From positions 17,741-81,740 of the forward strand of contig DASQUD010000250.1 of the NCBI GenBank assembly GCA_035641455.1: a stretch of 64,000 nt of DNA, given 5' to 3'. This DNA comes from Propionibacteriaceae bacterium (GTDB lineage Bacteria; Actinomycetota; Actinomycetes; Propionibacteriales; Propionibacteriaceae). The notes beneath the pieces were generated by a model that ran no database searches, was not told the origin of the DNA, and worked only from the letters and a program-made list of their open reading frames with translations. Position 1 is the stretch's first letter. The number at the start of each line of letters is the position of its first letter. Of the stretch, positions 918 through 47,379 are shown piece after piece. The translations under genes were made by a program, and so were the position numbers.

Positions 918-1493
918 TACCGCAGCCGCGCGCTGCAAAGCCGTGGCGAAGGAGACCAAGCGGGCCACCCGATCGCGGCCGTCGGCCGCGGCGCTCATTC
1001 GTACGGTCAGGTCATCACCGACCAGCGTGCCGGTGTAGCCGTGGTCGGCCTCGCATTGAGGATCGCTGCAGCTCGCCGGTTCGAGGTCTACCCGACGGAC
1101 GGCACCCCAACCGACTGACAACCAGGTCTCGGTGACGTCGGCCGATCCCACCCGATATTCCGCGGGCCGGGCGACCACCCGCGTTAGCACGACTGAGTTG
1201 ATCGTTGACAGCAGTACCGACTCAGTCGAGGCTGCCGCGAACGTACCCTCCATCGGAGGTTCGGCCGGGTGGTCGTCGGTGTGCCCGACGATCAGCCGGC
1301 TGGGAGTGAGCGCCAGGATCGTGACATGCCGGTGAATCTCGTCCCGGTCAAAGGTGGGCTCGTGATGGACGACGAAGTCCACAAGCTCCTCGTCGCCGAC
1401 GGACTCCATGATCGTGTCCTCGACCAGCTCCGGGAAGTACCCGCACGCGTCGATCTCCGCCCGCAACTCGCGCCTCGTCGATCCCAGCCTCAT
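915..1493 (-). CDS. conserved actinobacterial hypothetical protein (DUF5998-like; family name from memory)
   Basis: 192-aa ORF with coding-like composition (MRLGSTRRELRAEIDACGYFPELVEDTI...). It sits between the Pat-like acetyltransferase and the AP-family gene, an arrangement I recall from other actinobacteria. Confidence 0.55.
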   Translation of the reverse strand: MRLGSTRRELRAEIDACGYFPELVEDTIMESVGDEELVDFVVHHEPTFDRDEIHRHVTILALTPSRLIVGHTDDHPAEPPMEGTFAAASTESVLLSTINSVVLTRVVARPAEYRVGSADVTETWLSVGWGAVRRVDLEPASCSDPQCEADHGYTGTLVGDDLTVRMSAAADGRDRVARLVSFATALQRAAAV

Positions 1494-1577
1494 GAAGGCA
1501 TCTTATTGTGCTGGTCGGACTCTCCGGCGCCCTCGAGCTTCCCGTCTTCCTCTCCCTTTGCAGCAGCGCCTGGCGCG

Positions 1578-4232
1578 TTACAGCGTTCTCGTCAAGGGGT
1601 CGCGGCGGTCGGCCGTGGGAGCGATGAAGGCACGGGCACCAAGGACGGGGACTCCCTGACGCGCCGCGACGCACGGCTTCAGGGTGAGGGATGCCACCTG
1701 CGGCAGGTCGTCAGCGAGCTGCGCGACCCGATGCAGGAGATTCTCGATAGCTTCGATGTCCACTCCAGGACGGCCATTCTGGCCGAAGAGTGTCGGGGCG
1801 GCACGAAGATCCCGCACCATGGCTGCTGCGTCGACTGTGGTGAGTGGCGGCACGCGGTAGACCGTGTCACCCAGCAGCTCGCTGGGAATGCCGTCCAAGC
1901 CCAACGAGATGATGGGGCCGAACGCGGCGTCTTCTCGGCTGGTGATGACCAAAGCGACACCTGGCGGCGCCATTGCCTGTACCACCGGTTCGGCCACGGA
2001 TGGGCCTTGCTCATCGTCGAATCCAAGCCCCCGGACCAACACGGTCAGGTCGTTCCACGCCTCAGCCATCTCGTCCGGTCGGTCGAGGTTGCGCCGGACG
2101 CTGGCCAGATCCGGGCGCCCACGTACGGCATCGGCGGTGGCTTTCAGCACGACGTTCCAGCCGAGTCGCTCCGCCATCTCGACGGCATGGTCGAGGCTGT
2201 CCACCCGGTATCGGGGTACAAGGTCGATTCCGTAGGCGCTGAGCAGTTCGCTGGTCTCGGCATCGGTCAGTTCACGGCCGTCCCGCTGCCGGGTCAAGAC
2301 GCCATTCACCAGGCGCCTCGCCCGATCCGTGTCGTTGTCGAGCATAGGTACCGCACCCGGATCGCGCTGCCGCCAATGCGCGTAGGCACTGACCGCGTTT
2401 AAGGCATGGATTGCACTGGCCGGCCCGTCGAAGCTTGGGAGATCTCCCCAGGTGTCCGGTTCCCACTCGACCTCTGGTGCCGCACGGAAGCCGAGGAAAG
2501 CCCCGATCACAGGCTTGATTGCCGTCGCCGCAATCTCGGCCAGGACGTCGCGGACCGCATCGGTGCCGCCATCGAAGACCCGCACGATCGCGCAAACGAC
2601 CGAATCAGAGTCTCCGGCGATGACCTGGCGCACAGCTCGGGCGACATCCGGTGCCATCACGTCAGGCGGCAGCAGGACCGGCTCGGTGTCGCTCACCAGA
2701 CCAACGCCGCGGACGGTGGCGAGCATCTGCTGCGCCAGCCCACTGGAGTTGGTCACCAGGCCCACTCGAGGGCCACTGGGGAGCGGCTGCCTGGCGGCGA
2801 TCTTGGCGACGTCGAACATGGCAGACCGCTGGTGTACCACCATCACCCCGGCCTGCCTGAACAGGGCGTCCACCGCGACATCAGGAGAGTGGGCCAACCC
2901 ACCCCGATCGCCGACGTGAGAACCCCAGCTGATGCTGCCGGGGGCGAAGACGACCACAGGTTTCCGTCGCGCCAGGCGGCGCGCAAGTCGCGAGAACTTG
3001 CGCGGGTTGCCGATCGAGTCCATGGACAGCAGGCAGACTCGGGTGTCTTCGTCATCCTCCCAGTACTGGATCACGTCGTTGGCCGTGACGTCGGCATAGT
3101 CGCCGGTGCTGACGAACGAGGACAAGCCGATCTGCTGCTCCACCGCGTTGTTCAGCTGCGCGATGCCGACGGCGGCCGACTGACAGAACAGGCCGACGCC
3201 ACCGCTGCGCGGCATGGGACCGGGAGTGGCGTTCAAGCTGGTCTCGACATGGGTGTTGATCAGCCCCAGCGCATCGGGTCCGAGTGCTCGGATACCGTAC
3301 GCGCGAGCCAGGTTGACCAGCGTCAGCCTGTCCCTAGCCTGGACCTGGCTGCCAGTAAGCAGAACGAGGCCGTGCGCCCCTTTGTGCGCCGCCTCGATCA
3401 CGACGTCACCGAGTTGCTCGCTTCCTACCAGGACGAGCGCGAGATCGATCTGGCCGTTGACTTCGGCAATTGTCTGGGCAGTCTGAACTCCGCGGATTTC
3501 TGATCCGTCTGAGCTGATGCCGATCAATTCCCCGCGGAAGCCGCCACCGAGCACCGAATTGACGATGCGCTGGACGACGGCTTGCGGGCCGTAGACCACC
3601 ACTCGATGAGGTGTCAGCAGCCGGTGCACCGACGCGCTCTCGGCACGATGTTCACGGCGCTCCATAACGCCGACCGAGGTGTTCGTGGGCAGGATGGGGA
3701 ACTCCACGGCAAGGACGCCGTCCTGGATCCCTTTCGAGACCCGGTATCCAGCTTCGGCGAAAATCTGAGCCATTCGCCGATTTTGGGGCAGGACCTCGGC
3801 GACGAAGCGGTTGATCCCGCGCTCCCGAGCCGCCTCGGCAAGATGCTCGAGCAGCAACTGCGCGATCCCCCGCCCCTGGTGCGCGTCCTCCACCAGGAAC
3901 GCGACTTCCGCCTCGTTGTCGTCGAGCCGGTCGTACCGGCCGACGGCGATCATCTGATCAGCAACGGTCACGATCAACGCGACCCGGTCGACGTAGTCGA
4001 CTTGAGTGAAACGGGCGACGTCGCGCTGGCTCAACTTCGGATACGGAGCAAAGAAACGCAGGTACTTCGACTCTGGCGACACGCGCTCGTAGAACTCGAC
4101 GAGCATGTCGGCATCAGAGGGCCGGATCGGCCGCAGGTGGGCAACGCCGCCGTCGGTCAGGACGACATCCGCCTCCCATTCCACCGGGTAGCCAGGAGGA
4201 TGAACGACCGTCTCAGCTGGCACCCAACTCAC
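1578..4232 (-). CDS. bifunctional GNAT N-acetyltransferase / NDP-forming acyl-CoA synthetase-like protein (Pat-type protein acetyltransferase)
   Basis: 884-aa ORF. The N-terminal GNAT core reads VAFLVEDAHQGRGIAQLLLEHLAEAARERGINRFVAEVLPQN. It is followed by CoA-binding and succinyl-CoA-synthetase-like/ATP-grasp regions (VVVYGPQ..., KPVVVFAPG...). Confidence 0.8.
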   Translation of the reverse strand: MSWVPAETVVHPPGYPVEWEADVVLTDGGVAHLRPIRPSDADMLVEFYERVSPESKYLRFFAPYPKLSQRDVARFTQVDYVDRVALIVTVADQMIAVGRYDRLDDNEAEVAFLVEDAHQGRGIAQLLLEHLAEAARERGINRFVAEVLPQNRRMAQIFAEAGYRVSKGIQDGVLAVEFPILPTNTSVGVMERREHRAESASVHRLLTPHRVVVYGPQAVVQRIVNSVLGGGFRGELIGISSDGSEIRGVQTAQTIAEVNGQIDLALVLVGSEQLGDVVIEAAHKGAHGLVLLTGSQVQARDRLTLVNLARAYGIRALGPDALGLINTHVETSLNATPGPMPRSGGVGLFCQSAAVGIAQLNNAVEQQIGLSSFVSTGDYADVTANDVIQYWEDDEDTRVCLLSMDSIGNPRKFSRLARRLARRKPVVVFAPGSISWGSHVGDRGGLAHSPDVAVDALFRQAGVMVVHQRSAMFDVAKIAARQPLPSGPRVGLVTNSSGLAQQMLATVRGVGLVSDTEPVLLPPDVMAPDVARAVRQVIAGDSDSVVCAIVRVFDGGTDAVRDVLAEIAATAIKPVIGAFLGFRAAPEVEWEPDTWGDLPSFDGPASAIHALNAVSAYAHWRQRDPGAVPMLDNDTDRARRLVNGVLTRQRDGRELTDAETSELLSAYGIDLVPRYRVDSLDHAVEMAERLGWNVVLKATADAVRGRPDLASVRRNLDRPDEMAEAWNDLTVLVRGLGFDDEQGPSVAEPVVQAMAPPGVALVITSREDAAFGPIISLGLDGIPSELLGDTVYRVPPLTTVDAAAMVRDLRAAPTLFGQNGRPGVDIEAIENLLHRVAQLADDLPQVASLTLKPCVAARQGVPVLGARAFIAPTADRRDPLTRTL

Positions 4233-11870: not shown

Positions 11871-13946
11871 TCACGCGTCGATAGCAGCTGCGTCGAGCTG
11901 GTACGCGCCATCGATGATGAAGTCCTTGCGAGGGCCGACGTCGTTGCCCATCAGCATTTCGAAGGTGGTTTCGGCGATCAGCCCATCATCGACGGTCATT
12001 CTGCGCAGGGTTCGGTGCCGCGGACTCATGGTGGTCTCCGCCAGCTGGTCAGCATCCATCTCCCCAAGGCCTTTGTAGCGCTGCGGCTCCTTGAAGGTGA
12101 GCCCGCGCTTCGTCAACTCGGCGGCCTTCCGCTGGTATTCGGCGTCGGAGTAGGTGTAGATGAACTTCTCCTGGCCCTTTCGCGCATTGGTCAGCTCGAA
12201 TCGGTGCAGCGGCGGTACGGCGGTGAACACCCGGCCGGCGTCGACAAGCGGCCGCATATAGCGGAAGAAGAGGGTGGCGAGTAGGCAGCGGATGTGCGCG
12301 CCGTCGGAGTCGGCATCCGCCATGAAGATGATCTTGCCGTACCGGGCTGTATCGATATCGAAGCTCCGGCCCGAACCCGCGCCCACTACTTGGATGATCG
12401 ACGCGCACTCGGCGTTCTTCAGCATGTCGCCGATGGAGGCCTTCTGGACGTTGAGAATCTTTCCCCGGATCGGCAGTAGAGCCTGGAACTCGGAGTTGCG
12501 TGCCAGCTTCGCCGTACCCAACGCCGAGTCCCCCTCGACAATGAACAGCTCGCAACGGTCGACATCGGTGCTGCGGCAGTCCACCAGCTTGGCCGGCAGC
12601 GAGGACGATTCGAGCGCATTCTTGCGGCGCTGGGCGTCACGATGCTGCCGCGCCGCGACCCGCGCCCGAGACGCTCCGACCACCTTCTCCAGCACCTGCC
12701 GCGCCTGTGCGCGGGTCGTGCCCTTCGTCGATGTCAGGAACGCCGTCAGTTCCCGGCGTACGGCCTTCGTCACCAACCCGGCGACGGCCGGCGTGCCGAG
12801 CACCTCTTTGGTCTGGCCTTCGAACTGCGGCTCGGCCAGCCGTACGGTAATCACCGCTGTCATCCCCTCGAGGACGTCGTCCTTGACGATCTCCTCCCCC
12901 GCTTTCAGCAACCGAGTGCCCTGCAACACGTCGGTGAACGTGCGTGTCAGTGCGCGCTCGAACCCCGCCACGTGTGTGCCGCCTTTCGGCGTGGCAATGA
13001 TGTTGACGTAGGAGCGGGTGGTCGACTCATAGCCGGTGCCCCAGCGGACGGCGATGTCGATGTCGAGGTCGCGCTCGACGTCCCTGGGCTCCATATGGCC
13101 GTCGGCGTCCAGCATTGGCACCGTCTCGGTGAACCGGTCCTGGCCGCGTAGCCGGATGACGTCGGTGATGGCTTCGCCGGCCGCGAGAAACTCACAGAAT
13201 TCCGAGATCCCGCCGTCGTGGCGGAAGCGCTGCTCGCTCACCTCCGCCGTGCGGGCGTCGGTGATGTGGAGTGCCAGCCCGGGCACCAGGAAGCTGGTCT
13301 GCCGGGCGCGCTCCTCAAGCTCCGCCAGCGACAAGGCCGCGTCCTTGAGGAAGATCTGCCGATCGGGCCAATAGGTCACGCGAGTACCGGTAATGCCCTT
13401 GGCCGTCCTGCCCACTTTGCGGAGGCCGCCGCCTGCGGTGAACCTGGCGTTCGGCCCCGGCCCGTCGAAGTTCCCTGGCGTACCCCGCCGGAACGACATC
13501 GCCCAGGTGGCGCCGTTGCGATCCACCTCGACGTCCAGCCGGCTGGCGAGCGCGTTCACGACGGACGAGCCCACGCCGTGGAGGCCGCCGGTCGCGTTGT
13601 AGCTGCCGTTGCCGAATTTGCCGCCCGCGTGCAGCTTGGTGAACACGACCTCGACCCCGGAAAGTCCGGTACGCGGTTCGACGTCAACCGGGATGCCGCG
13701 GCCACGGTCGGCCACCGAGATGCCGCCATCGGCCCGCAGTGTGACGGAAATCTCCTTACCGAATCCGCCGAGAGCCTCGTCGACGGCGTTGTCGATGATC
13801 TCCCACAAGCAGTGCATCAGGCCGCGGGTATCGGTCGAGCCGATGTACATGGCCGGCCGCTTGCGGACCGCTTCCAACCCTTCCAGGACCAGTAGGTGGT
13901 GTGCCTCGTAATCGCGTGTTTCCGTTACAGGATTGGCAGTTGGCAC
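11871..13946 (-). CDS. parE: type IIA DNA topoisomerase subunit B (topoisomerase IV ParE-like / GyrB paralog)
   Basis: Contains LEGLEAVRKRPAMYIGST, GGLHGVGSSVVNALS, ELFIVEGDSALGTAK, IMADADSDGAHI and YKGLGEM. The likely start is GTG at 13946 (VPTANPV...). The track ORF extends to 14111. Confidence 0.85.
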   Translation of the reverse strand: MPTANPVTETRDYEAHHLLVLEGLEAVRKRPAMYIGSTDTRGLMHCLWEIIDNAVDEALGGFGKEISVTLRADGGISVADRGRGIPVDVEPRTGLSGVEVVFTKLHAGGKFGNGSYNATGGLHGVGSSVVNALASRLDVEVDRNGATWAMSFRRGTPGNFDGPGPNARFTAGGGLRKVGRTAKGITGTRVTYWPDRQIFLKDAALSLAELEERARQTSFLVPGLALHITDARTAEVSEQRFRHDGGISEFCEFLAAGEAITDVIRLRGQDRFTETVPMLDADGHMEPRDVERDLDIDIAVRWGTGYESTTRSYVNIIATPKGGTHVAGFERALTRTFTDVLQGTRLLKAGEEIVKDDVLEGMTAVITVRLAEPQFEGQTKEVLGTPAVAGLVTKAVRRELTAFLTSTKGTTRAQARQVLEKVVGASRARVAARQHRDAQRRKNALESSSLPAKLVDCRSTDVDRCELFIVEGDSALGTAKLARNSEFQALLPIRGKILNVQKASIGDMLKNAECASIIQVVGAGSGRSFDIDTARYGKIIFMADADSDGAHIRCLLATLFFRYMRPLVDAGRVFTAVPPLHRFELTNARKGQEKFIYTYSDAEYQRKAAELTKRGLTFKEPQRYKGLGEMDADQLAETTMSPRHRTLRRMTVDDGLIAETTFEMLMGNDVGPRKDFIIDGAYQLDAAAIDA

Positions 13947-14208
13947 GGGCTGAGAGTACCTCCGGTGTGCCCCGCATCCGGGACGGTCGAGACCGCATCC
14001 AGATGGTGTCGCGCAGCGAAGAGTAGGAAAAGACTCGGCTGCAGGCTCGATCCGGCCCTCATTCGTTACATAAGAGACACGGCGTCGAGACCCGCAGAGG
14101 GAACAATTCAAGCCAGAGTGGATGTTGACTGGGAACCGAGGGTACGAAGCAACAGCGACGTAGCCTCATCACAGATGAAGATCATTCGATCCGAAAGCGA
14201 GGCCTACC

Positions 14209-14406
14209 TTGAGCACATCAGTCATCGAAGGCGCCGCGTTGAACGCCGCCGATCGGTGTGATCGGTGCGGGGCCCAGGCCTACGTCCGCGTCATCATGGC
14301 CAATGGTTTCGAGCTCTTGTTCTGCGCCCACCACAGCCGCGAGCACGCGGACAAGCTCAAGCAGGTGGCGCTGAAGATTCACGACGAATCCGAGCGCATC
14401 CAGTAG
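14209..14406 (+). CDS. small conserved Cys/His protein (DUF7455-like; name from memory)
   Basis: 65 aa with CDRCGAQAYV...LLFCAHH (CxxC plus CxHH). Small proteins of this type commonly sit near parE and the principal sigma gene in actinobacteria. Confidence 0.5.
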   Translation: MSTSVIEGAALNAADRCDRCGAQAYVRVIMANGFELLFCAHHSREHADKLKQVALKIHDESERIQ

Positions 14407-14664
14407 CGCTTCAATAGCTATCGACAGTTCGGCCCCTCCATCGTCCCGATGCGAGGGGTCGAGTCGTCTTGGCGCCGACATCTGCATCGGACGAACCGCC
14501 ACTGCGGATTTGTCATGTACCCCTAGCTGACGCCCTCCGACGGCCGGCGGCGGGGCTCCCTGTCAGCAGCAGAACGGTGTACCCGCGAGGCTCCATTCCG
14601 GCATCCTTATGAAGAGGAGCCGCTGTCGTACGCCGATTCTATGGAGATGGCGAGGTGACGACCC

Positions 14665-15657
14665 ATGTTCGACGCAGCAGCAGTCATCGGGACGGGAAGG
14701 TCCGACGATTATCTGCTGTCGCCCGTGGAGCACGCCGAGAGGCTGCGCGCCTCCGCGCCAAAGCTTGCCGCGCTGCTTACCCACAGCGCACCCATGGAGT
14801 TGGCGCGGCAGTACGCAGACGCGGACGCCGAAGCCGTTGCCGCGGGGGTCGCGTTCAAGCGTTGGCTGACAAGGGCTAACTGGACGGTCTTGGTGACCGC
14901 GACCGTGAGCGCCGTACTGATGGCTGTTGCTCTGCTGGAAGGCAGACTAGGCGGATTGACGAGGCCACTACTCGCCGTGCTGGCTCTTCTCGGTGTCGGA
15001 ACAGGTGCGATCGCCTCGATGGCCCTGTTCCGGGTGAAGGAGGGACGGCTGCTGGAGAACTGGTTGACGGCCCGCGCGCGAGCTGAAACGAAGCGCTTGT
15101 CGTACTTCACCTGGCTTGTCGAGGAGTTCGCTAGCCCGATCGACATCCAGCTCGACTTGCTCAAGCTGGAATACTTTCGCCGCTATCAGCTGGACCTCCA
15201 GATCGCCTACTACCGGATCCGGAGATCGGACCACCGCAGCTCGGCTGAGCGGACCCTCAATATTGCAGCTTGGTCGGTCGTCGTTGCTGCGATCGCGTCA
15301 GGTGCCGCCGGAGTGCTCGGCGCAATGATGACCGAATGGGCCGCGCTCGGTTCGCTCGCGGTTTTCGCCGCGGCACTTCAAGGGTTCGCCGCTTCGCGGG
15401 AGGCCATAAACCAGGATCGCCGGAACGCTGAGCGATATGAGCGCAGCGCGGTGGCTCTGCAAGGCCTCCGAGAACGTCTAGACGATGTCCGGGCAGGCAT
15501 CACAGCGGGATCCCGATCGGTGCTGATCGAGTACGTCGCTGCTGTCCAGGACCAGTTGTCTCTCGAGCACCGGCAATGGTTGGAAGCAGCGGAGAGCACC
15601 CAGACAGGCGTGGCGCGGCTCGACAAAGCGCTTCAGAGCGCACTTCACGGGGATTAG
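14665..15657 (+). CDS. 4-TM membrane protein with DUF4231/SLATT-like architecture (SLATT-like 1)
   Basis: 330 aa. Two hydrophobic hairpins (WTVLVTATVSAVLMAVALL / LLAVLALLGVGTGAIASMAL and LNIAAWSVVVAAIASGAAGVLGA / WAALGSLAVFAAALQGFAA). The YYRIRRSDHR stretch precedes hairpin 2. The charged C-terminal helix reads REAINQDRRNAERYERSAVALQGL. Confidence 0.6.
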   Translation: MFDAAAVIGTGRSDDYLLSPVEHAERLRASAPKLAALLTHSAPMELARQYADADAEAVAAGVAFKRWLTRANWTVLVTATVSAVLMAVALLEGRLGGLTRPLLAVLALLGVGTGAIASMALFRVKEGRLLENWLTARARAETKRLSYFTWLVEEFASPIDIQLDLLKLEYFRRYQLDLQIAYYRIRRSDHRSSAERTLNIAAWSVVVAAIASGAAGVLGAMMTEWAALGSLAVFAAALQGFAASREAINQDRRNAERYERSAVALQGLRERLDDVRAGITAGSRSVLIEYVAAVQDQLSLEHRQWLEAAESTQTGVARLDKALQSALHGD

Positions 15658-16556
15658 GGCCCCCAGCCGTCGCGGAGGCCTCGTGACGCCCGCCAGAGGG
15701 TGTGCTCGCGCGAAATCGCCTCTTCGGCCTGGCCGACGAAGACGGTCCAACGCTCCTCGCTCCTCATGGTTGTGAGCTCTGTCGCGATTGAGGCGAGTTC
15801 CTGGCTGGCGATGCCGTATGCCGTCGCCAGGTTCCGGTGTTGCTTGGCCTCGATCCAGGCCGTGACACTCCCAGCGGCCACGGCAAGGAAACCGAGCAGA
15901 TCGAAGTTGATCCAGCCGAACGCCTTGAGCGCGCCGCCGACCATGCCGGCCACCTCCAGCACGATGCTCACCAGCACCCATGCGCGTGCTCGCCGGTCGT
16001 TCCACCGGGCCTTTTGTGAGTACCAGCGTTGCTGGTCGGCAATCCGGTCGTCGAGATAGATCTGCCGACGCTCATCGAAGTCAAGGGCGCGGACTTGGCG
16101 CATCTTGTCGCTGATCTGATGCTCGCCGGGGACGCCGGGACCCAACGAGATCGACTGAAGGTCCTGCAGCAGTGACCGGGTCTGCGCAAGGAACTGCGCG
16201 TCGACATCAGGGATATCGACCTCGAAGGGCTCGGCCCGAACCATGTATCGCCAGGCGAGTGTCTTGGCGGACTCCGCCGCGGCCCGACCTTCGTACCAGG
16301 CCGTGTGCGGACTGGTCATGGCCATGAAGAGCTCGGCGCCTAGTGCGCAGGCGAACGCGAGAAACGCTAGTCCGCCGCCAATCTGGAAGTCTGCCGCGGT
16401 AGTCAGCGTGACGGCGCCGCCGAATGCCGCGACGAGCAAAGCACCGAGGCGCACCCTGAGCGCCCTCAGATAGGACCGTTGCGCTCTGACCGACTCCCCA
16501 TCTGCACTACGACACAGCGCTGGGAAGTCGGCCGGACCGTCAATCGTGACGCTCAT
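15654..16556 (-). CDS. 4-TM membrane protein with DUF4231/SLATT-like architecture (SLATT-like 2)
   Basis: ATG at 16556 is preceded by AGGAG (the track ORF begins at TTG 16604). Hairpins are LGALLVAAFGGAVTL / LAFLAFACALGAELFMAM and AWVLVSIVLEVAGMVGGAL / LLGFLAVAAGSVTAWI. The motif WYSQKARWNDRRARAW is DUF4231-like. The C-terminal helix reads EAKQHRNLATAYGIASQELASI. Confidence 0.65.
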   Translation of the reverse strand: MSVTIDGPADFPALCRSADGESVRAQRSYLRALRVRLGALLVAAFGGAVTLTTAADFQIGGGLAFLAFACALGAELFMAMTSPHTAWYEGRAAAESAKTLAWRYMVRAEPFEVDIPDVDAQFLAQTRSLLQDLQSISLGPGVPGEHQISDKMRQVRALDFDERRQIYLDDRIADQQRWYSQKARWNDRRARAWVLVSIVLEVAGMVGGALKAFGWINFDLLGFLAVAAGSVTAWIEAKQHRNLATAYGIASQELASIATELTTMRSEERWTVFVGQAEEAISREHTLWRASRGLRDGWGP

Positions 16557-17012
16557 CCTGGACGCTCCTATCGAATGGGCCGGAATGAGGCTCCGAGGGC
16601 TCAACCGTTGTCGCTGGGCTTGTCACCGGAGTACTGATTGTTCTTAACCGCGACTCCGACGGATAGTCCCATCCCAGGATCGTCGAGCTGCCGCGTGTCG
16701 ACACTTACCGCTGGATGAGAGCTTCACTTGGCGCAAGTTGGTGTGGGACTACCTGCGTTCCAGGTCCTGAAGCCAGACGGTGGGCGTCTGGGCGCTGAGT
16801 GCGCTCGGGCAACACTAGAGACGGTCGCGCAATGTTGTACGGGGGAGCTGTTCCAGCAAGCTGTCGCGATGAGGGGTCGACCATGCTGCGCTGCGACTGA
16901 TCACCTGCGGCGGCATCTACGACGCAGCCCGGCACACAGCTACCTGGACAACGTCGTGGTCTCCGCCAAGTGCAAATGGTCCGCAAGTCTCACGGCTGGT
17001 CTCCAGAGCCGG

Positions 17013-18806
17013 TCAGCCTTTGACCACCAGCACAAACGGCTCCGACGTCACTCCAGAGCGAGGGTCCACCACCCGAAGCCGGTGCCGACCCTTCGCCAAC
17101 TCGACATAGGCGGTGAACCGGCCCGACGGGTCAGTCCGGGTGGGTAGCGGGAAGAACACCCACCTACCTTCCTCCCGGCGCTGCACCCGCACAAAAGTAT
17201 CCGCTCCACCGCGGTACACGCCCTGAATCGGAACAGGCTCAAAGGCCCTGGCAGAACCGGCCAAATCCTCCAACTGAATGGTTGGCTCGCCTCCCCCCGT
17301 GGCGGGCGATTCATCGGACGGCTCACTCGTTGGACTGCTCACCGTTGGTGCGGACGCGCTCGGCGTAGGGACCGACGATTGGGCGGTCACGCCGCCACCC
17401 CTATTCGCGCCGAACAACAACGCTCCGATAAGCAGTGCCGCCAAGAGGGTGGCGGCAAGGGCTAGCCATCGGAAGCGTTTCTTCTCCGGAGGATTATCAA
17501 CCGGCACAAGTCCGAAGACTTGCTGCTCGGGGAGTTGGGGAGATGGGTGCAGCCCGTCTCCGTTGAGTGCCGCTGGTGCGATGTCGCCCTTCTGCGGGTC
17601 GGTGACTGCTGGATCGACCTGCTTGCTGGCTGTTCTGTGGGGGTCGCTGGGTGCGGACGCTGCCTTGGCCTGGGCTGTTTGGTGGGGGTCGGTAGCTGGC
17701 CGCTCTAGCTTGCCCTGCTGATTCGAGAGCATTTCTGGAGGCCGACCTCCACTGGGCACCGCACGGACTGCCGGTATCTCTACCGTGTCGTCATCTTCTG
17801 GGCCGGCAAGCGCTGTGTCGACCTTTTCGGCGCGGACAGCCGCTGGCTCTGCCTTCGTCTGGGCCGCCTTCTGGGTGACGGCAGCCGCCGGATCGTGGTT
17901 CTTCCCAGTCAACTTTTCGGTGTCCGCGGCCACCGGGTCAGCCTTGGTCTGGGCCGTCTTGTGGCGGGGGGTGGCTGCCGGCTCGACCTGCTTGATGGCC
18001 GGCTCGATCTGCTTGCTGGCCATCTTGTGGGGGTCCGTGGCTGTCGGCTCCGCCTCTGTCTGGACCGTCTTCTGCGGGCTGGTGGCCGCCGACTGTAGCT
18101 TGGCCTGCTGCTTCGAGAGCTTTTGTGGAGGCCGACCTCCACTCGGCACCGCACGGACTGTGGGTATCTCTACCGTGTCGTCATCTTTTGGCCCGGCAGG
18201 CGCCGTGTTGGCCTTCTCAGTGCCGGTAGCCGGAGGCTCAACCTTCGCCTGTGCCACCTTCCGGGCGCCGGTATCCGCCGGATCCAGGTACTTCCCAGGC
18301 CCCTTTTCGGTGTCCGCCCTTGCCGGGTCTGCCACTTTCTCGGCCGCCTTTTCGGTGTTGGCAGTCGCTGGATCCACCTCCTGTGCCGGCTGAATGTCGA
18401 TCGAGTCCGTGGTCTTAGTGCTCCACAGCAGGCCGAGGACCGTGTCGAGCCAGCTGCGGATGTAGCCGAACTCGGGGCTCTGATCACTGGTCCGTTCGAG
18501 CTTGCCGACTTCGCGCAGCGCTGCCTTGCGGACGTTGTCGGGCAGCTGAGCCTCCTCGACTCGCTTCCGGTAGTCCTGGGCACCCTCGGGCTTGTTCTCG
18601 CCGAGCTCCCTCTGCCTGCTCGCCTTCTCGGCCTTGACAGCTGAGGGGTCGGCAGCTCCCGGGTCGGCCTTCTTCTCTGTGGATAACTGCGGTGCCGGCA
18701 TCTTCACCCGAGGGATCCGCATTGTCGGTGTCTCGTCTTGCGAGAGGTTCGGCTGCTGGAGTGTTGGGTCCAGGGCTGAGTTCGGCTGCTTGGACGGCTG
18801 CGACAT
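17013..18806 (-). CDS. repeat-rich single-pass membrane protein with Lon N-domain-like helical segment and C-terminal beta-rich domain
   Basis: ATG at 18806 is preceded by AGGAGG. The N-terminal RVEEAQLPDNVRKAALREVGKLERTSDQSPEFGYIRSWLDTVLGLLWS is collinear with the Lon segment just before the AAA+ module. A long P/A/K/T/Q repeat region follows. The TM helix is RFRWLALAATLLAALLIGALLFG. The C-terminal part reads FEPVPIQGVYRGG...GRFTAYVELAKGRHRLRVV. Confidence 0.6.
   Translation of the reverse strand: MSQPSKQPNSALDPTLQQPNLSQDETPTMRIPRVKMPAPQLSTEKKADPGAADPSAVKAEKASRQRELGENKPEGAQDYRKRVEEAQLPDNVRKAALREVGKLERTSDQSPEFGYIRSWLDTVLGLLWSTKTTDSIDIQPAQEVDPATANTEKAAEKVADPARADTEKGPGKYLDPADTGARKVAQAKVEPPATGTEKANTAPAGPKDDDTVEIPTVRAVPSGGRPPQKLSKQQAKLQSAATSPQKTVQTEAEPTATDPHKMASKQIEPAIKQVEPAATPRHKTAQTKADPVAADTEKLTGKNHDPAAAVTQKAAQTKAEPAAVRAEKVDTALAGPEDDDTVEIPAVRAVPSGGRPPEMLSNQQGKLERPATDPHQTAQAKAASAPSDPHRTASKQVDPAVTDPQKGDIAPAALNGDGLHPSPQLPEQQVFGLVPVDNPPEKKRFRWLALAATLLAALLIGALLFGANRGGGVTAQSSVPTPSASAPTVSSPTSEPSDESPATGGGEPTIQLEDLAGSARAFEPVPIQGVYRGGADTFVRVQRREEGRWVFFPLPTRTDPSGRFTAYVELAKGRHRLRVVDPRSGVTSEPFVLVVKG
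17700..18250 (-). repeat. internal duplication with 390-bp period inside the repeat protein gene
   Basis: About 17706-17810 and 18096-18200 are near-identical at the DNA level (tagcttgccctgctgattcgagagc... versus tagcttggcctgctgcttcgagagc...). They encode GPEDDDTVEIPAVRAVPSGGRPPEMLSNQQGKLE and GPKDDDTVEIPTVRAVPSGGRPPQKLSKQQAKLQ. Similarity decays outside this core. Confidence 0.85.
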
Positions 18807-19240
18807 CGATACCTCCTGCCAAGGACCTCCACACAATCTTGAAGTACGGCTGCATCCGGGCTGATTCGTGTCACACCGCGGACATCTGGATCACGGCCAA
18901 TCACCACTCCACGGCCTGCAGTACACCGACGATTCGCGGGTGACGAGCTCGTCGGCACCAACGGCGCGTATACAAATGAGGTTGCCGGCAAGCCACCGGT
19001 GATCAACCTCAGCTATGACAAGCCCACTAACACAGGGGGCCGGCTGTGCATGCCGGTCGAGTTCGCCGTGGTGGCAATCCCAACGCGCTGACAGCAGCGC
19101 CCAGCCCGCATACCAGACCGAGGAGGCGTGACAGTACATTGCTGACCGCAGCTGAGGCTGAAAGTGCCAACTCGGCTAGCAGGTACGTGCGCACCAGGTC
19201 CCCTGGCACATCGTGATGACATGCAGACGGGAAGGAAATC

Positions 19241-43410: not shown

Positions 43411-46400
43411 TCAGCTGCAGCCGCTGGTGGAACCGCAGCCTTCGCAGACGTAGCAGCTCCCGCTGGGGCGCATCTTGGTACCGCAGGTAAGGCAGAGGGG
43501 CGCGTCGACGCTGGTGCCGGTGATCTCCTCGAACAGCTCGGATGTGGTCCGAGCGCCCGGGGGCGCCGGCTTGGCGATCGCTACTGGTTCATCCAGTTCA
43601 TCGGTGTTGATGTTCTCGGTACCCATCTGATCTGTGGCGACGAGATCTCCCGGGTCGTTCCTCAGTGACTGGGCCTCGCTGATCTCCTCCGGCTCCAGAT
43701 ATGAGCCGGTCTCGACGTGCCGTGCGCGCTCGGCTGCGGTGTAGATGCCTAGCTCCGCTCGCTCGTCGAAGGAGAGGTAGTCCAGTGCCAACCGGCGGAA
43801 GATGTAGTCCATGATCGACTGCGCCATCCGGATGTCCGGGTCGTCGGTCAGACCGGCAGGCTCGAACTTCAGGTTGGTGAACTTCTGGACGAAGGTCTCC
43901 AGCGGTACGCCGTACTGGAGCCCGATCGACACCGCAATCGAGAACGCATCCATCACCCCGGCCAACGTCGATCCCTGCTTGCCGAGCTTGAGGAACACCT
44001 CGCCAAGTCCGTCGTCAGGGTAGGAACCTGAGGTCATATAACCTTCGGCACCGCCGACCGAAAACGAGGTCGTACGGCTGGGCCGTGACTTGGGGAGCCG
44101 TTTCCGGGTCGGCCGGTAGACCACCTTCTCCACGATCTCAGTCTCGGCTGGAACCGCCGCCTTGTCATCAGCACTTGAGGACTTCGCATCGCTGAGCGGC
44201 TGCCCAACCTTGCAGTTGTCGCGGTAAACCGCCAAGGCCTTCAATCCAAGCTTCCAGCCCTGCCGGTAAACATCGGCGATGTCCTCGACCGTCGCGGTTT
44301 CCGGCAGGTTGACCGTCTTCGAGATCGCTCCGGACAGGAACGGCTGCGCCGCCGCCATCATCCGTACGTGTCCCATCGGCTTGATCGCGCGCTGCCCCAT
44401 GGCGGTATCGAAGACCTCGTAGTGCTCCGGCTTGAGGCCGGGCGCATCGATCACATGGCCGTTCTCGGCGATGAACTCGACGATGGCTTCCGCGGTCTCA
44501 TTCGCATAGCCCAGCTTCTTGAGTGCCCGCGGAATCGTCTGGTTGACGATCTGCAGCGACCCACCACCCACGAGCTTCTTGAACTTGACCAGCGAGAAGT
44601 CCGGCTCGATACCGGTCGTGTCGCAATCCATCATGAATCCGATGGTCCCGGTGGGGGCACAAACACTGGCTTGAGCGTTGCGGAATCCGCTGGCCGCGCC
44701 GATCTTGATCACGCCGTCCCACGCTGCCGTGGCCCGGCGGCGCACGTCGGCACCCAGACTGTCGGTAGTCCGGAGCGCATCGTTGGCCGCCTGATGCTTG
44801 CGCATCACCCGCTTGTGGGCGTCGGCGTTGCGCGCATAGCCCTCGTAAGGACCGACGATGCCTGCCAGCTCAGCCGAACGGCGGTAGGAGACACCGGTCA
44901 TCAGGGAGGTGATCGCTGCCGCCAAAGCCCGGCCACCTTCAGAGTCGTAGCCGTGCCCGGTCGCCATCAGCAGGGCGCCCAGGTTGGCGTAGCCGATGCC
45001 GAGCTGGCGATAAGCCCGAGTCGTCGCCCCGATCGCCTCCGTCGGGAAGTCCGCGAAGCAGATGGAGATATCCATCGCAGTGATGATCAACTCGACAGCC
45101 TGCTCGAACTTCTCCGCATCGAAGGTGTCGTCGTCGCGGAGGAACTTGAGCAGATTGAGGCTGGCCAGGTTACAGGAGCTGTTGTCCAGGCTCATGTACT
45201 CAGAGCACGGATTGGACGCGGTGATCCGGCCGGTCTCGGGGTTGGTGTGCCAGTCGTTGATCGTGTCGTCGTACTGAATGCCGGGATCAGCGCACTCCCA
45301 CGCCGCCTGGGACATCGTCCCGAAGAGCTCCCGGGCGTCGACGGTCTCCGTCACCCGGCCGTCGATACGTGCTCGCAAGCCGAACTGGGAACCGTCTTCA
45401 ACGGCACGCATGAACTCGTCGGTGACCCGGACCGAGTTGTTGGCGTTCTGGTACTGCACCGATGTGATGTCTCGGCCGCCGAGATCCATGTCGAAACCGG
45501 CATCCCGCAGGGCACGGATCTTGTTCTCCTCCCGGGCCTTGGTCTCGATGAACTCGACGATGTCGGGATGATCGACGTCGAGCACGACCATCTTGGCTGC
45601 TCGGCGCGTAGCACCGCCCGACTTGATGGTGCCTGCGCTCGCATCCGCACCGCGCATGAAGGACACCGGCCCGGAGGCGGTGCCGCCAGAGCTGAGCAGC
45701 TCTTTGGAGGAGCGAATCCGCGAAAGGTTGATGCCCGCTCCCGAGCCGCCTTTGAAGATGAAGCCTTCCTCGCGGTACCAGTTCAAGATCGAGTCCATCG
45801 AGTCGTCGACGGACAGAATGAAGCAGTTGTGCACACGCAGATTGCCGGACAGGTACTCGCCGGACTCGGTCTGGATGTCGTAGACGTCCATCGCGCCGCG
45901 TTGCTCGATCCGCTCGACCTGCAGCCGCTTCATCGCTTTGGCCGCGTGACCCGGCTTGTCGAAACTGCTCTCGAGCTTCTCCTGCTTCACCGGGTCGAGA
46001 AATCCGATCTCGTCGGCGAAGATCCGCCGGTCTCCGGCATTGCGGATCCGCAGATTCCAGGTGCCTTGTCGGTTGCCTCTCGATGCTTCCTGAAAGCCCA
46101 CGCGCGCAAAGATGCCAAAACGCAGGAGAAGTGACTGCAGCCCTCGAATCAGCTCTTCCGACATCAGATCGATCTCGATCCCGAAGGAACGGTCCCGGGC
46201 GGCTACCAAGCCCTCGGCCTGGAAGATGCTTCGCAGGTAGGCCGCGACGACGGGTAGCGGCGCTGTGTAGAGCTGTTCCGGGACGACCATCGACTCGTCA
46301 CCAAGCAGCAGGTTCCACTTCTCGATGTAGTCCGACAACTGAGCACCGTAAAGGCGGATCCGGCGGCTGTCGTCACCGTGGTCATGGTTTCGCACGGCGC

Positions 46401-47379
46401 GCTCGTCTCGATCGCCGTCCGGAAACACAACCTCCAGCGCTTTGGTCACCCAGGCCAGCTCGGCTGGCGTTACGGTCCTGACCTCCATGGTCACAGACCT
46501 GTTCCGGCTTGTGTCCTGGCCGACGAAACCATCGGACTGCAGCCAACCGGCCAACGCCGCCTCGGCGATGTCCGAGGAGGAAATCTGGTCCTCTCCGTGG
46601 GAGTCGCGTCGGTGCCACTCGACCATGTCACCCGGCAGAAGGGTGCCTGCCGGAACGAACCGGCCGGTGGTCTCGCTGCTGCTCCGCCACACCAGATGGT
46701 CGGCCGTCACGTCCAGCGCGTAACCAGCCGTGGTGTGTAGCCGCAGCACGTCTTTGACGCCGTTTGCCTTGGTCGCCACGACCGTGGTGAGTCCGTGGGC
46801 GTCGTACACCTTTGTTCCGACAGCGTCGTCCTCGACCAGCCTGCCGATCGGCACCAGCCCGCCAGGAGTGCTGACCAGCGCCTCGTACGGTTGGCAGGCG
46901 CTCACCTGCTGAGGAGAGGGAGTGCCGACGTTGAACCACACCGGCGAATTGAATGAGAAGTACTGGTGGAGCAGCATCCACGTCAGCTCGTGCTCAAATA
47001 TCTCGGCGCTGACCGGATCGGCGAAATACCCGTAGTCCTCGCCTGCCTTCCGATAGGTCTTGACCACCCGATCCAGCAGTTGGCGGAGGCTGTGCTCACG
47101 AGCCGGCGTACCCAGCGCGCCACGGAAGTACTTGGTCGTCACAATGGTCGAAGCGTTAACACTCCAGAAGTCGGGGAACTCGACTCCCTTTTGCTCGAAG
47201 ACGACGTCGCCGGTCTTCCAGTTGGTCTGGACCACGTCGCGGCGCTCCCAGCTCACCTCGTCGTACGGATGGACGCCGTCCGTCGTGAACACGCGCTCGA
47301 CGGTCAGCCCGACGTTCTTGACCCCGCGGGATCGCCGAGCGTCTGATCGCCCATTCGCCGAACGGGTGGTTTCGGTCAT
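43411..47379 (-). CDS. nrdJ: adenosylcobalamin-dependent (class II) ribonucleotide reductase, intein-containing
   Basis: Extein motifs are SPVWFNVGT...QQVSA[C..intein..N]CFILSVDDSMDSI, NPCSEY, CNLASLNL and TVNLPE. The Cys-rich tail is CLTCGTKMRPSGSCYVCEGCGSTSGCS. Confidence 0.95.
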   Translation of the reverse strand: MTETTRSANGRSDARRSRGVKNVGLTVERVFTTDGVHPYDEVSWERRDVVQTNWKTGDVVFEQKGVEFPDFWSVNASTIVTTKYFRGALGTPAREHSLRQLLDRVVKTYRKAGEDYGYFADPVSAEIFEHELTWMLLHQYFSFNSPVWFNVGTPSPQQVSACQPYEALVSTPGGLVPIGRLVEDDAVGTKVYDAHGLTTVVATKANGVKDVLRLHTTAGYALDVTADHLVWRSSSETTGRFVPAGTLLPGDMVEWHRRDSHGEDQISSSDIAEAALAGWLQSDGFVGQDTSRNRSVTMEVRTVTPAELAWVTKALEVVFPDGDRDERAVRNHDHGDDSRRIRLYGAQLSDYIEKWNLLLGDESMVVPEQLYTAPLPVVAAYLRSIFQAEGLVAARDRSFGIEIDLMSEELIRGLQSLLLRFGIFARVGFQEASRGNRQGTWNLRIRNAGDRRIFADEIGFLDPVKQEKLESSFDKPGHAAKAMKRLQVERIEQRGAMDVYDIQTESGEYLSGNLRVHNCFILSVDDSMDSILNWYREEGFIFKGGSGAGINLSRIRSSKELLSSGGTASGPVSFMRGADASAGTIKSGGATRRAAKMVVLDVDHPDIVEFIETKAREENKIRALRDAGFDMDLGGRDITSVQYQNANNSVRVTDEFMRAVEDGSQFGLRARIDGRVTETVDARELFGTMSQAAWECADPGIQYDDTINDWHTNPETGRITASNPCSEYMSLDNSSCNLASLNLLKFLRDDDTFDAEKFEQAVELIITAMDISICFADFPTEAIGATTRAYRQLGIGYANLGALLMATGHGYDSEGGRALAAAITSLMTGVSYRRSAELAGIVGPYEGYARNADAHKRVMRKHQAANDALRTTDSLGADVRRRATAAWDGVIKIGAASGFRNAQASVCAPTGTIGFMMDCDTTGIEPDFSLVKFKKLVGGGSLQIVNQTIPRALKKLGYANETAEAIVEFIAENGHVIDAPGLKPEHYEVFDTAMGQRAIKPMGHVRMMAAAQPFLSGAISKTVNLPETATVEDIADVYRQGWKLGLKALAVYRDNCKVGQPLSDAKSSSADDKAAVPAETEIVEKVVYRPTRKRLPKSRPSRTTSFSVGGAEGYMTSGSYPDDGLGEVFLKLGKQGSTLAGVMDAFSIAVSIGLQYGVPLETFVQKFTNLKFEPAGLTDDPDIRMAQSIMDYIFRRLALDYLSFDERAELGIYTAAERARHVETGSYLEPEEISEAQSLRNDPGDLVATDQMGTENINTDELDEPVAIAKPAPPGARTTSELFEEITGTSVDAPLCLTCGTKMRPSGSCYVCEGCGSTSGCS
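45826..46896 (-). mobile_element. 357-aa intein with LAGLIDADG homing-endonuclease domain inside nrdJ
   Basis: Covers aa 162-518 of the ORF and starts CQPYEALVSTPGG (Cys1). The block-B-like motif is LDVTADHLV. The two LAGLIDADG-like motifs are LAGWLQSDGFVG and AAYLRSIFQAEGLV. It ends VYDIQTESGEYLSGNLRVHN, followed by the +1 Cys (CFILSV). Confidence 0.9.

Follow-up and report, generated by a model that had tools for sequence, protein, structure and literature searches.

Two convergent genes for double-SLATT membrane proteins in a Propionibacteriaceae bacterium, probably the reduced form of a cassette with a TIR gene

How can two genes for putative membrane effectors be retained on a chromosome where no gene beside them would make a signal for them? 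The question is raised by a stretch of 64,000 nucleotides from a Propionibacteriaceae bacterium (GenBank assembly GCA_035641455.1, contig DASQUD010000250.1, positions 17,741 to 81,740; the window in what follows), in which two convergent genes, here named A and B, encode membrane proteins related to the SLATT families. An earlier note, made from the sequence alone, had described a convergent pair of open reading frames (ORFs) at 14665-16556, both of which are confirmed here, and had seen no signalling partner near them. Indeed, none of the 32 window ORFs scanned with Pfam encodes a TIR, CD-NTase, SLOG or nuclease protein, and nothing was found in the six-frame ORFs of the window by tblastn with the TIR-GDPD protein described below or by a narrow TIR hidden Markov model (HMM) built from the TIR-GDPD family. 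We think it probable that the orphan pair is the reduced form of a TIR-SLATT module in which the TIR gene was deleted and both genes for signal-gated effectors were retained.

The cassette of relatives and the loss of its TIR gene

In most relatives a gene for a protein with TIR and glycerophosphodiester phosphodiesterase (GDPD) domains lies exactly between A and B, so deletion is the most likely origin of the window pair. In the window itself the lack of a partner is real; it does not describe a two-gene design. The intervening gene (loci and proteins are cited by L and P numbers) encodes 525 residues with TIR_2 and GDPD matches and lies on the strand of B in L001-L003 and L005; B and the TIR-TM-GDPD gene are codirectional and A is convergent on both. 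From its N terminus the protein comprises the TIR domain, a Pro-rich linker, one membrane helix after RRR, a Ser-rich linker and the phosphodiesterase domain, a layout that would place the TIR domain inside the cell and the phosphodiesterase domain outside. The protein looks catalytic: E95 of TIR, the putative catalytic glutamate, does not vary among 20 homologues, nor do the HRG, ExD and HD motifs of GDPD. Its best PADLOC match is ThsB (generic ThsB1), at 8e-10. Contigs with 74%-identical homologues of A present differing chromosomal contexts.

The survey by tblastn covered 45 loci from contigs of one genome per species and 80 metagenome loci, which gave 52 non-redundant loci of soil Propionibacteriaceae-like bacteria once A genes at least 99% identical had been collapsed. 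The order A / TIR-GDPD / B is present in 23 of these, A with TIR-GDPD and no B in nine, A directly followed by B in seven, and A followed by a patatin-like lipase in one; the remaining 12 are cut by a contig end, and six of them still have TIR-GDPD beside A. Locus L009 was moved from the automatic three-gene count (24) to the class with A and B because it holds a TIR scar only. With L009 excluded, TIR-GDPD adjoins A in 38/52 loci. In L051 and L052, homologues of TIR-GDPD (68% identity) also occur alone, with neither A nor B.

The TIR gene has been lost by deletion at least four times independently (L009, L101, L081/L057 and L021). In L009 its upstream region and first ~40 codons remain between A and B (E 1.6e-18). 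The A gene of L101 is 99.7% identical to those of the TIR-carrying loci L075, L076 and L078; here the TIR gene and half of B are gone in a deletion that spans the end of A to the middle of B, and the end of A is aberrant. In L081/L057 both A and B are intact, 139 bp apart as measured in L081, and the nearest TIR-bearing relative is 94.6% identical. In L021, A is split and 30 codons of B are left, and L124 has a premature stop in A. Among the surveyed loci there is no case that would require an independent insertion of TIR-GDPD.

The parE-DUF7455 context of the pair is found only in the window, in L006 (A 94% identical) and in L004/L007 (A 88%), none of which has the TIR gene. An alignment of the DNA of the window with L006 (DATFOP01) and L007 (CAVWIA01) shows that the TAG that shortens A is common to the window and L006, and leaves the tail of A 12 codons shorter than in L007. 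A deletion of ~141 bp is private to the window; it removed the spacer and the last codons of B, exchanged the final residues of B (…RDGWGP*) and created an overlap of 4 bp. In L006 an insertion of 1 bp shifts the frame of B near codon 39. The junction of A and B in the window corresponds to the site that the TIR-TM-GDPD gene occupies in L001, L005, L008 and others. The comparison makes it very probable that the window pair derives from the three-gene cassette. By parsimony, an ancestor of the window lineage would have lost the TIR-TM-GDPD gene by deletion; a new stop codon would then have cut off the tail of A, and the further ~141-bp deletion in the window would have brought the two stops into overlap.

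The TIR-TM-GDPD fusion, of ~520 residues, can be seen at L001:9091-10668 (-), with equivalents in L005, L008, L010, L011, L013, L015, L016, L018, L020, L027 and others. Soil metagenomes hold 1599 matches to it at E <= 1e-3, a figure that includes proteins matching one domain only. Where source records name the protein, they label it glycerophosphodiester phosphodiesterase. A literature search found no paper combining 'TIR domain', 'GDPD' and 'bacteria', and the A / TIR-TM-GDPD / B cassette has apparently not been described so far in the searchable literature. In L025 the place of TIR-GDPD is taken by a patatin-like phospholipase (1408-2745, minus strand) convergent with an A homologue of 70% identity; the contig is labelled Gemmatimonadales and its A gene is Propionibacteriaceae-like, which may be due to a binning error or to horizontal transfer. 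Three cassettes without B have a 246-residue protein in its place (L012:10818-11558, L014:10834-11574 and L029:5287-6027 (-)), and a Band_7/SPFH domain is present in the single copy that was scanned, that of L012. The protein may be a functional replacement for B or simply the product of the neighbouring gene.

The two proteins, their families and their partners in other lineages

The original description of SLATT domains is said to be that of Burroughs et al., from 2015. Pfam expands the name as SMODS and SLOG-associating 2TM effector domain (PF18184 and PF18181; also PF14015, DUF4231). Among the two-domain proteins of the SLATT_3-SLATT_1/DUF4231 type, B is a full-length, high-scoring member: in Pfam it matches SLATT_3 at 5.3e-42 (144.1 bits), SLATT_1 at 1.6e-36 (125.4 bits) and DUF4231 at 1.9e-15 (57.6 bits), with cut-offs of 24.7-26.3, and in NCBIfam it scores 166.7 for SLATT_3 (cut-off 45) and 119.4 for SLATT_1 (cut-off 41). 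Taken alone, A falls short of the cut-offs. Its match to Pfam SLATT_1 covers the C-terminal half only, with an E-value of 4.9e-5 and 23.8 bits against a cut-off of 26.3, its NCBIfam SLATT_1 score of 29 bits is below the cut-off of 41, and its N-terminal half has no SLATT match in Pfam or NCBIfam by its own sequence. At the level of the family the result is different: close homologues of A (62-94% identity) mostly bear a precomputed PF18181, members of the A family score above the SLATT_1 cut-off (P0121, 41.0 bits; P0129, 33.7; P0193, 31.0; P0150, 30.9), and weak DUF4231 or SLATT_fungal matches occur in the N-terminal half of P0150, P0193 and P0134. The assignment of both proteins to SLATT/DUF4231 proposed in the earlier note therefore holds without reserve for B and, for A, at the level of family and profile, where A fits the same two-domain plan.

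A profile-profile comparison (hhalign) of 78 representatives of the A family with 14 B-family sequences gave a probability of 95.1% and an E-value of 3.2e-8, with residues 49-309 of A collinear with residues 14-292 of B. It superposes WLTARARAETKRLSYF on WYEGRAAAESAKTLAWRY and YYRIRRSDHRSS on WYSQKARWNDRRAR, so the common layout that had been read by eye in the two proteins reflects true homology. The A-family HMM also recovers B proteins (1e-6 to 6e-9). Direct BLASTP of A against B finds no match, in keeping with the claim that the copies are highly diverged. By these profile comparisons A and B are diverged paralogues with a common double-SLATT plan, and A is a member of a separate, large and diverged family whose N-terminal domain goes unrecognised by current models. 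PADLOC gives a weak '2TM effector' match for A (E 0.016) and none for B, and neither result is usable.

The proposed layout of two membrane hairpins is borne out by hydropathy and by structural models. A hydropathy scan with a threshold of 1.6 detects three hydrophobic segments in each protein, and the second hairpin of the AlphaFold2 models suggests a fourth, weaker membrane helix in both. The model of A (pLDDT 95, pTM 0.88) is all helical, with two long hairpins at 41-90/92-126 and 161-221/223-249 that have one-residue turns and hydrophobic segments at their tips. The model of B is poor (pLDDT 60, from a shallow alignment) and served for the helix pattern only, which is the same. Since the hairpin turns are short and uncharged and the remaining regions long and charged, the N and C termini of both proteins are most likely cytoplasmic, and the conserved polar residues W133, R137, E141, R144, R173, Q250, R253, N254, E256, R257, E301, H302 and W305 would face the cytoplasm. 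The first four of these are invariant and lie on a helix in the N-terminal half of A. Of the polar or aromatic residues of its family, the six invariant and 25 near-invariant ones are all present in the window copy of A, and B likewise retains every family-invariant residue. Foldseek with the model of A found nothing in the PDB at E <= 1e-3, with TM-scores of ~0.2; ABC exporters and alpha-pore-forming toxins were set aside as structural relatives, being long-helix look-alikes only (TM ~0.2).

A by-product of these searches is a large SLATT-like family whose partners differ among phyla: the A family comprises 655 clusters at 50% identity with E <= 1e-3, of which 204 have E <= 1e-30, and its members are nearly all 330-350 residues long and alignable end to end. 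The proposal that the neighbourhoods be surveyed for co-occurrence of the two genes had a divided outcome. They are linked in the Propionibacteriaceae-like lineage, with TIR-TM-GDPD as the third gene, and not elsewhere: the B-family HMM has no match near 21 distant A-family genome loci from other phyla (L030-L050), and B-family tblastn has none in metagenome loci with 41-51% A identity. As far as these searches reach, A-B linkage is limited to this one lineage.

In other lineages, P0139 is a fusion of A and TIR, and A-family genes adjoin genes for a TIR-NTPase-TPR protein in L041, a 550-residue TIR protein in L120-L122, TIR and TPR-S proteins in L033 and L132, and an nSTAND1-WD40 protein in L037. 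In six loci of Hyphomicrobiaceae type (L042, L044-L048) they stand beside genes for caspase (Peptidase_C14) and FGE-sulfatase proteins. Several A-family loci show no recognisable partner. For multicellular prokaryotes, Kaur et al. (eLife 2020, PMC7159879) described conflict systems built from TIR, caspase, FGE-sulfatase (FGS), STAND and TPR-S proteins, with occasional SLATT genes that accompany nucleotide-related effectors; GDPD goes unmentioned there. The TIR, TIR-TPR-S, caspase-FGE-sulfatase, STAND and patatin partners of the A family are components of these systems; such components lie beside distant A-family genes and none is in the window.

Two details of these loci may be added. In the metagenome-assembled genomes (MAGs) of L042 and L044-L048 the caspase-FGE-sulfatase gene lies head to head with the A-family gene (27-31% identity), and the proteins of L042 and L044 have a weak, sub-threshold match to a peptidoglycan-binding domain. 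An insertion of ~2.5 kb with two ORFs, of 242 and 513 residues, probably a transposase pair, interrupts the A-family gene of a Bauldia MAG; the disrupted copy is present on two contigs (L037 and L038, 5029-8567).

Selection on the pair, known systems and rival explanations

Nei-Gojobori estimates of the ratio of nonsynonymous to synonymous substitution (dN/dS) were made within the TIR-less clade. For A they are 0.137 between the window and L006, 0.092 between the window and L007, and 0.107 between L006 and L007; for B, 0.116 between the window and L007, and 0.307 between the window and L006 with the frameshift corrected. The flanking genes parE, parC, carbonic anhydrase and sigma have dN/dS of 0.04-0.12 and DUF7455 has 0.01, an overall range of 0.01-0.12. 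By this measure the constraint on A and B is close to that on parC or the sigma factor. Synonymous divergence (dS) of A and B is 0.59-0.75 to L007 and 0.18-0.22 to L006, similar to that of the five flanking genes (0.44-0.69 to L007, 0.02-0.44 to L006), which indicates vertical inheritance at this site since the species split. Purifying selection at a housekeeping level since the divergence of the three species suggests that the pair still works, and we regard it as likely to be functional.

The closest known relative of the TIR-SLATT module, as a functional analogue, would be type VII Thoeris, which joins a TIR protein (ThsB) to a SLATT effector (ThsH) and has validated anti-phage activity (bioRxiv 10.64898/2025.12.03.692087). 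According to the same work, its TIR makes canonical cyclic ADP-ribose (cADPR) upon infection, the model of ThsH is an oligomer that spans the membrane and has charged pockets on the cytoplasmic side, and a TPR-containing effector of type VIII, ThsI, responds to the same cADPR signal and is at times in an operon with ThsH. As in type VII, the TIR gene of the relatives is coupled to SLATT genes, with B and TIR codirectional, and the conserved Arg/Glu/Trp-rich cytoplasmic helices of A and B recall the charged pockets of the ThsH model. Unlike type VII, the window has no TIR gene, and two paralogous SLATT proteins with two SLATT domains each stand in the place of one protein.

SLATT effectors also occur in the reverse-transcriptase systems UG17/DRT10, AbiA and UG23, and as accessory proteins in RADAR and DRT type 3 (PMC9226505; bioRxiv 10.64898/2026.04.29.721553). 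Like A and B, these are SLATT membrane proteins; they serve as swappable effector or accessory modules, easily gained and lost. Neither the window nor the related loci examined have a reverse transcriptase or RADAR gene close to A/B. Membership in CBASS fails because no CD-NTase (SMODS) cyclase is found among the Pfam-scanned window ORFs or the neighbours of A in ~30 related loci.

From these comparisons a mechanism can be proposed. A and B are paralogous inner-membrane proteins with two SLATT units each, every unit consisting of a membrane-dipping helical hairpin and conserved charged cytoplasmic helices. By analogy with type VII Thoeris, and in view of the repeated pairing of the A family with TIR, SLATT proteins would be signal-gated effectors. 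On binding a NAD-derived nucleotide made by a TIR protein, for example a cyclic ADP-ribose, with their cytoplasmic helices, they would oligomerise and permeabilise the membrane, and the infected or stressed cell would stop growing. We see an even chance that the pair acts as such a nucleotide-gated, membrane-damaging effector. The orphan pair would most likely respond to a signal from an unlinked enzyme, and the idea of effectors triggered in trans, put forward in the earlier note, is viable.

Several observations weigh against a functional pair reduced from a signal-gated module. Relaxed tblastn and blastn searches of the interval from A to B found no remnant of TIR-GDPD in any of the three loci (window, L006 and L007), the best match being non-significant (E 0.043, in L006); with no scar in the window clade, TIR loss there rests on parsimony, and because this clade is sister to the TIR-carrying one, a gain in the latter is formally conceivable. 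The TIR of the relatives is membrane-anchored, with a helix that joins it to an extracytoplasmic GDPD domain, unlike the soluble ThsB, and its comparison with three published type VII ThsB sequences by BLASTP and HMM is non-significant (best E 0.33). The cassette stands outside recognisable defence genes, so a role in defence is itself presumptive. At the locus, the transcripts of A and B would collide, given their 3' overlap without a terminator. Finally, the pair shows some erosion: A and B have each lost part of the C-terminal tail, the nearest relative, L006, has a frameshift in B, and the dN/dS of B reaches 0.31 on the window-L006 pair. From the frameshift and the decay in other lineages it follows that B, at least, is dispensable.

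Beside the reduced module we place, more tentatively, a domesticated form that works independently of TIR or 'eavesdrops' on other systems. The pair would then be a heteromeric gated channel, or A and B would be shared receivers for signals of the cyclic ADP-ribose type from unlinked systems. If this were true, effector-only SLATT loci would be a functional class, and the parent cassette, with its outward-facing phosphodiesterase, would be a new, envelope-sensing kind of TIR signalling.

A different proposal is that A and B form an autonomous two-gene module, either a heteromeric channel or a sensor plus a pore, and that TIR-GDPD is an addition in the sister clade or dispensable. The strong constraint on the TIR-less pair in three species agrees with it, as do the renewed occurrence of intact A and B after a recent TIR loss (L081, L057), the existence of TIR-GDPD without A or B (L051, L052) and a possible shared upstream motif that hints at co-regulation. 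We nevertheless consider it unlikely. A is accompanied by TIR-GDPD and not by B in 9/52 loci and so does not need B, and in L006 it is still under constraint beside a frameshifted B; A-B linkage is absent outside the Propionibacteriaceae-like lineage, and deletions of TIR-GDPD, never insertions, were observed.

The pair may also be a decaying relic, in which the SLATT genes became useless after the loss of TIR and are turning into pseudogenes whose frames have not yet been hit. TIR-GDPD is deleted recurrently, often with subsequent decay (L021, L101, L124), and the 1-bp frameshift of B in L006 and the trimming of both tails in the window would fit such a course. Yet neutral decay would bring dN/dS to ~1, and A (0.09-0.14) and B (0.12), over a dS of 0.6-0.75, have values that match those of parC and sigma. 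Moreover, all family-invariant residues are kept, the lost tail of A is unconserved in the family alignment, and the last residues of B are conserved in part only. A relic is therefore quite improbable.

Two further explanations have very little in their favour. That one protein is a toxic pore and the other a paralogous antagonist that restrains it, in the manner of toxin and antitoxin or effector and immunity protein, was suggested in the earlier note and is favoured by the arrangement alone, that is, diverged, convergent and tightly packed paralogues; it finds no support in the relatives, where each gene is found intact without the other, as in the nine loci with A and TIR-GDPD and in L006 with its broken B, and both proteins keep the two-domain effector-like architecture and the invariant residues, so we put it aside as highly improbable. 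A housekeeping envelope function outside conflict, with A and B as membrane proteins that respond to stress and are linked to lipid turnover, would suit the location among core genes, the vertical inheritance, the housekeeping-level constraint, the position of the cassette outside recognisable defence islands and the partners in relatives (an outward-facing GDPD domain, and the patatin-like lipase of L025), but is equally hard to credit, as the pair is absent from this site in most relatives, its patchy gain, loss and decay are typical of accessory conflict genes, and the partners of the A family elsewhere (TIR, caspase-FGE-sulfatase, STAND NTPases and TPR-S) are classic parts of conflict systems.

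If the pair is a reduced TIR-SLATT module, effector genes without a sensor would be explained as a recurrent product of cassette erosion in soil actinobacteria. Their long retention in one lineage raises the question of whether signal-gated effectors can work, or be reused, without a signal generator of their own. The loci also extend the catalogue of TIR-linked membrane effectors and provide natural 'effector-only' variants.

The genes, their upstream sequences and their surroundings

Coordinates of the features are collected in Table 1. The convergent genes have no intergenic spacer, since their stops are interlocked (TAG of A at 15655-15657; TAA of B, on the minus strand, at 15654-15656). 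Ribosome-binding sites AGGAG and GAGG precede the two ATGs. The ATG at 16556 is preferred as the start of B because homologues all begin MSVTIDGPADFP there; an alternative TTG at 16604 would yield 316 residues. The public gene call of B (P0272) has a later start and 266 residues; all homologues and the AGGAG ribosome-binding site speak for the 300-residue form.

Table 1. Features of the A/B locus and two further genes of the window (positions in the window)
Feature	Position	Strand	Description	Basis
Gene A	14665..15657	+	330 aa, double-SLATT-like membrane protein, two helical hairpins	ORF list
A, N-terminal half (aa 49-170)	14809..15174	+	divergent SLATT_3/DUF4231-like hairpin domain	hhalign onto SLATT_3 region of B
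A, C-terminal half (aa 176-305)	15190..15579	+	SLATT_1-like hairpin domain	Pfam SLATT_1
A/B junction	15654..15665	.	overlapping stops and breakpoint of ~141-bp deletion relative to L006	three-way DNA alignment
Gene B	15654..16556	-	300 aa, SLATT_3 + SLATT_1 (DUF4231) membrane protein	ORF list, Pfam
B, SLATT_1 domain (aa 167-288)	15693..16058	-		Pfam
B, SLATT_3 domain (aa 12-164)	16065..16523	-		Pfam
Possible shared cis element 5' of A	14582..14602	+	CCCGCGAGGCTCCATTCCGGC; inverted-repeat pair, 63-83 nt before A	
Second copy 5' of B	16579..16599	-	coding strand CCCTCGGAGCCTCATTCCGGC; 23-43 nt before B	
Conserved stretch 5' of B	16557-16620		~60 nt	
607-aa protein	17013-18836	-	Ala/Pro/Thr/Lys-rich, C-terminal hydrophobic segment	
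Class II ribonucleotide reductase	43411-47379	-	1322 aa, B12-dependent; LAGLIDADG homing-endonuclease domain at aa 377-459	

The two copies of the 21-nt element agree at 16/21 positions, a value equalled by 5 of 500 shuffles. The element precedes both genes in L006 as well and is weaker in L007; it may be a shared regulatory site of A and B. The ~60 nt upstream of B, which contain the second copy, are conserved in all clades (…GCGCCGCTACGGTAGAGCCCGCGGAGCCGTCAGCGCGGCT…AAGGAGTGCCAGGATG), the stretch being found also in L001, L005, L008-L011, L013, L015, L016, L018, L020, L027 and L081, and include a short CCGCG…CGCGG stem. This stretch is a candidate promoter, operator or element of the 5' untranslated region of the transcription unit of B and TIR-GDPD. 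A scan for promoter and terminator consensus sequences gave nothing beyond shuffle expectation and no terminator between A and B, and Rfam has no match at E <= 0.1 over 13900-17300.

Upstream of the pair lie parC, carbonic anhydrase, parE and DUF7455, and downstream a repetitive 607-residue membrane protein, a GT2 glycosyltransferase and CHRD and SnoaL proteins; farther genes of the window encode the principal sigma factor, HrpA, PrsW, HtrA, a class II ribonucleotide reductase, DinG and MiaB. These neighbours are core actinobacterial genes, so the pair is not in a defence island, and the 'surrounding island' of which the earlier note spoke does not exist. The A/B region has ~64% G+C, the same as the rest of the window, which contains no tRNA genes.

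The stretch from DUF7455 to sigma differs among the three species (window, L006 and L007). The 607-residue protein, which has no Pfam match, carries an internal duplication of ~390 nt (17603-17902 versus 17993-18292, 77% identity) and repeats in 45-nt phase; its counterpart in L006 is 62% identical, and in L007 tblastn finds none at the equivalent position. The LAGLIDADG domain within the ribonucleotide reductase suggests an intein insertion.

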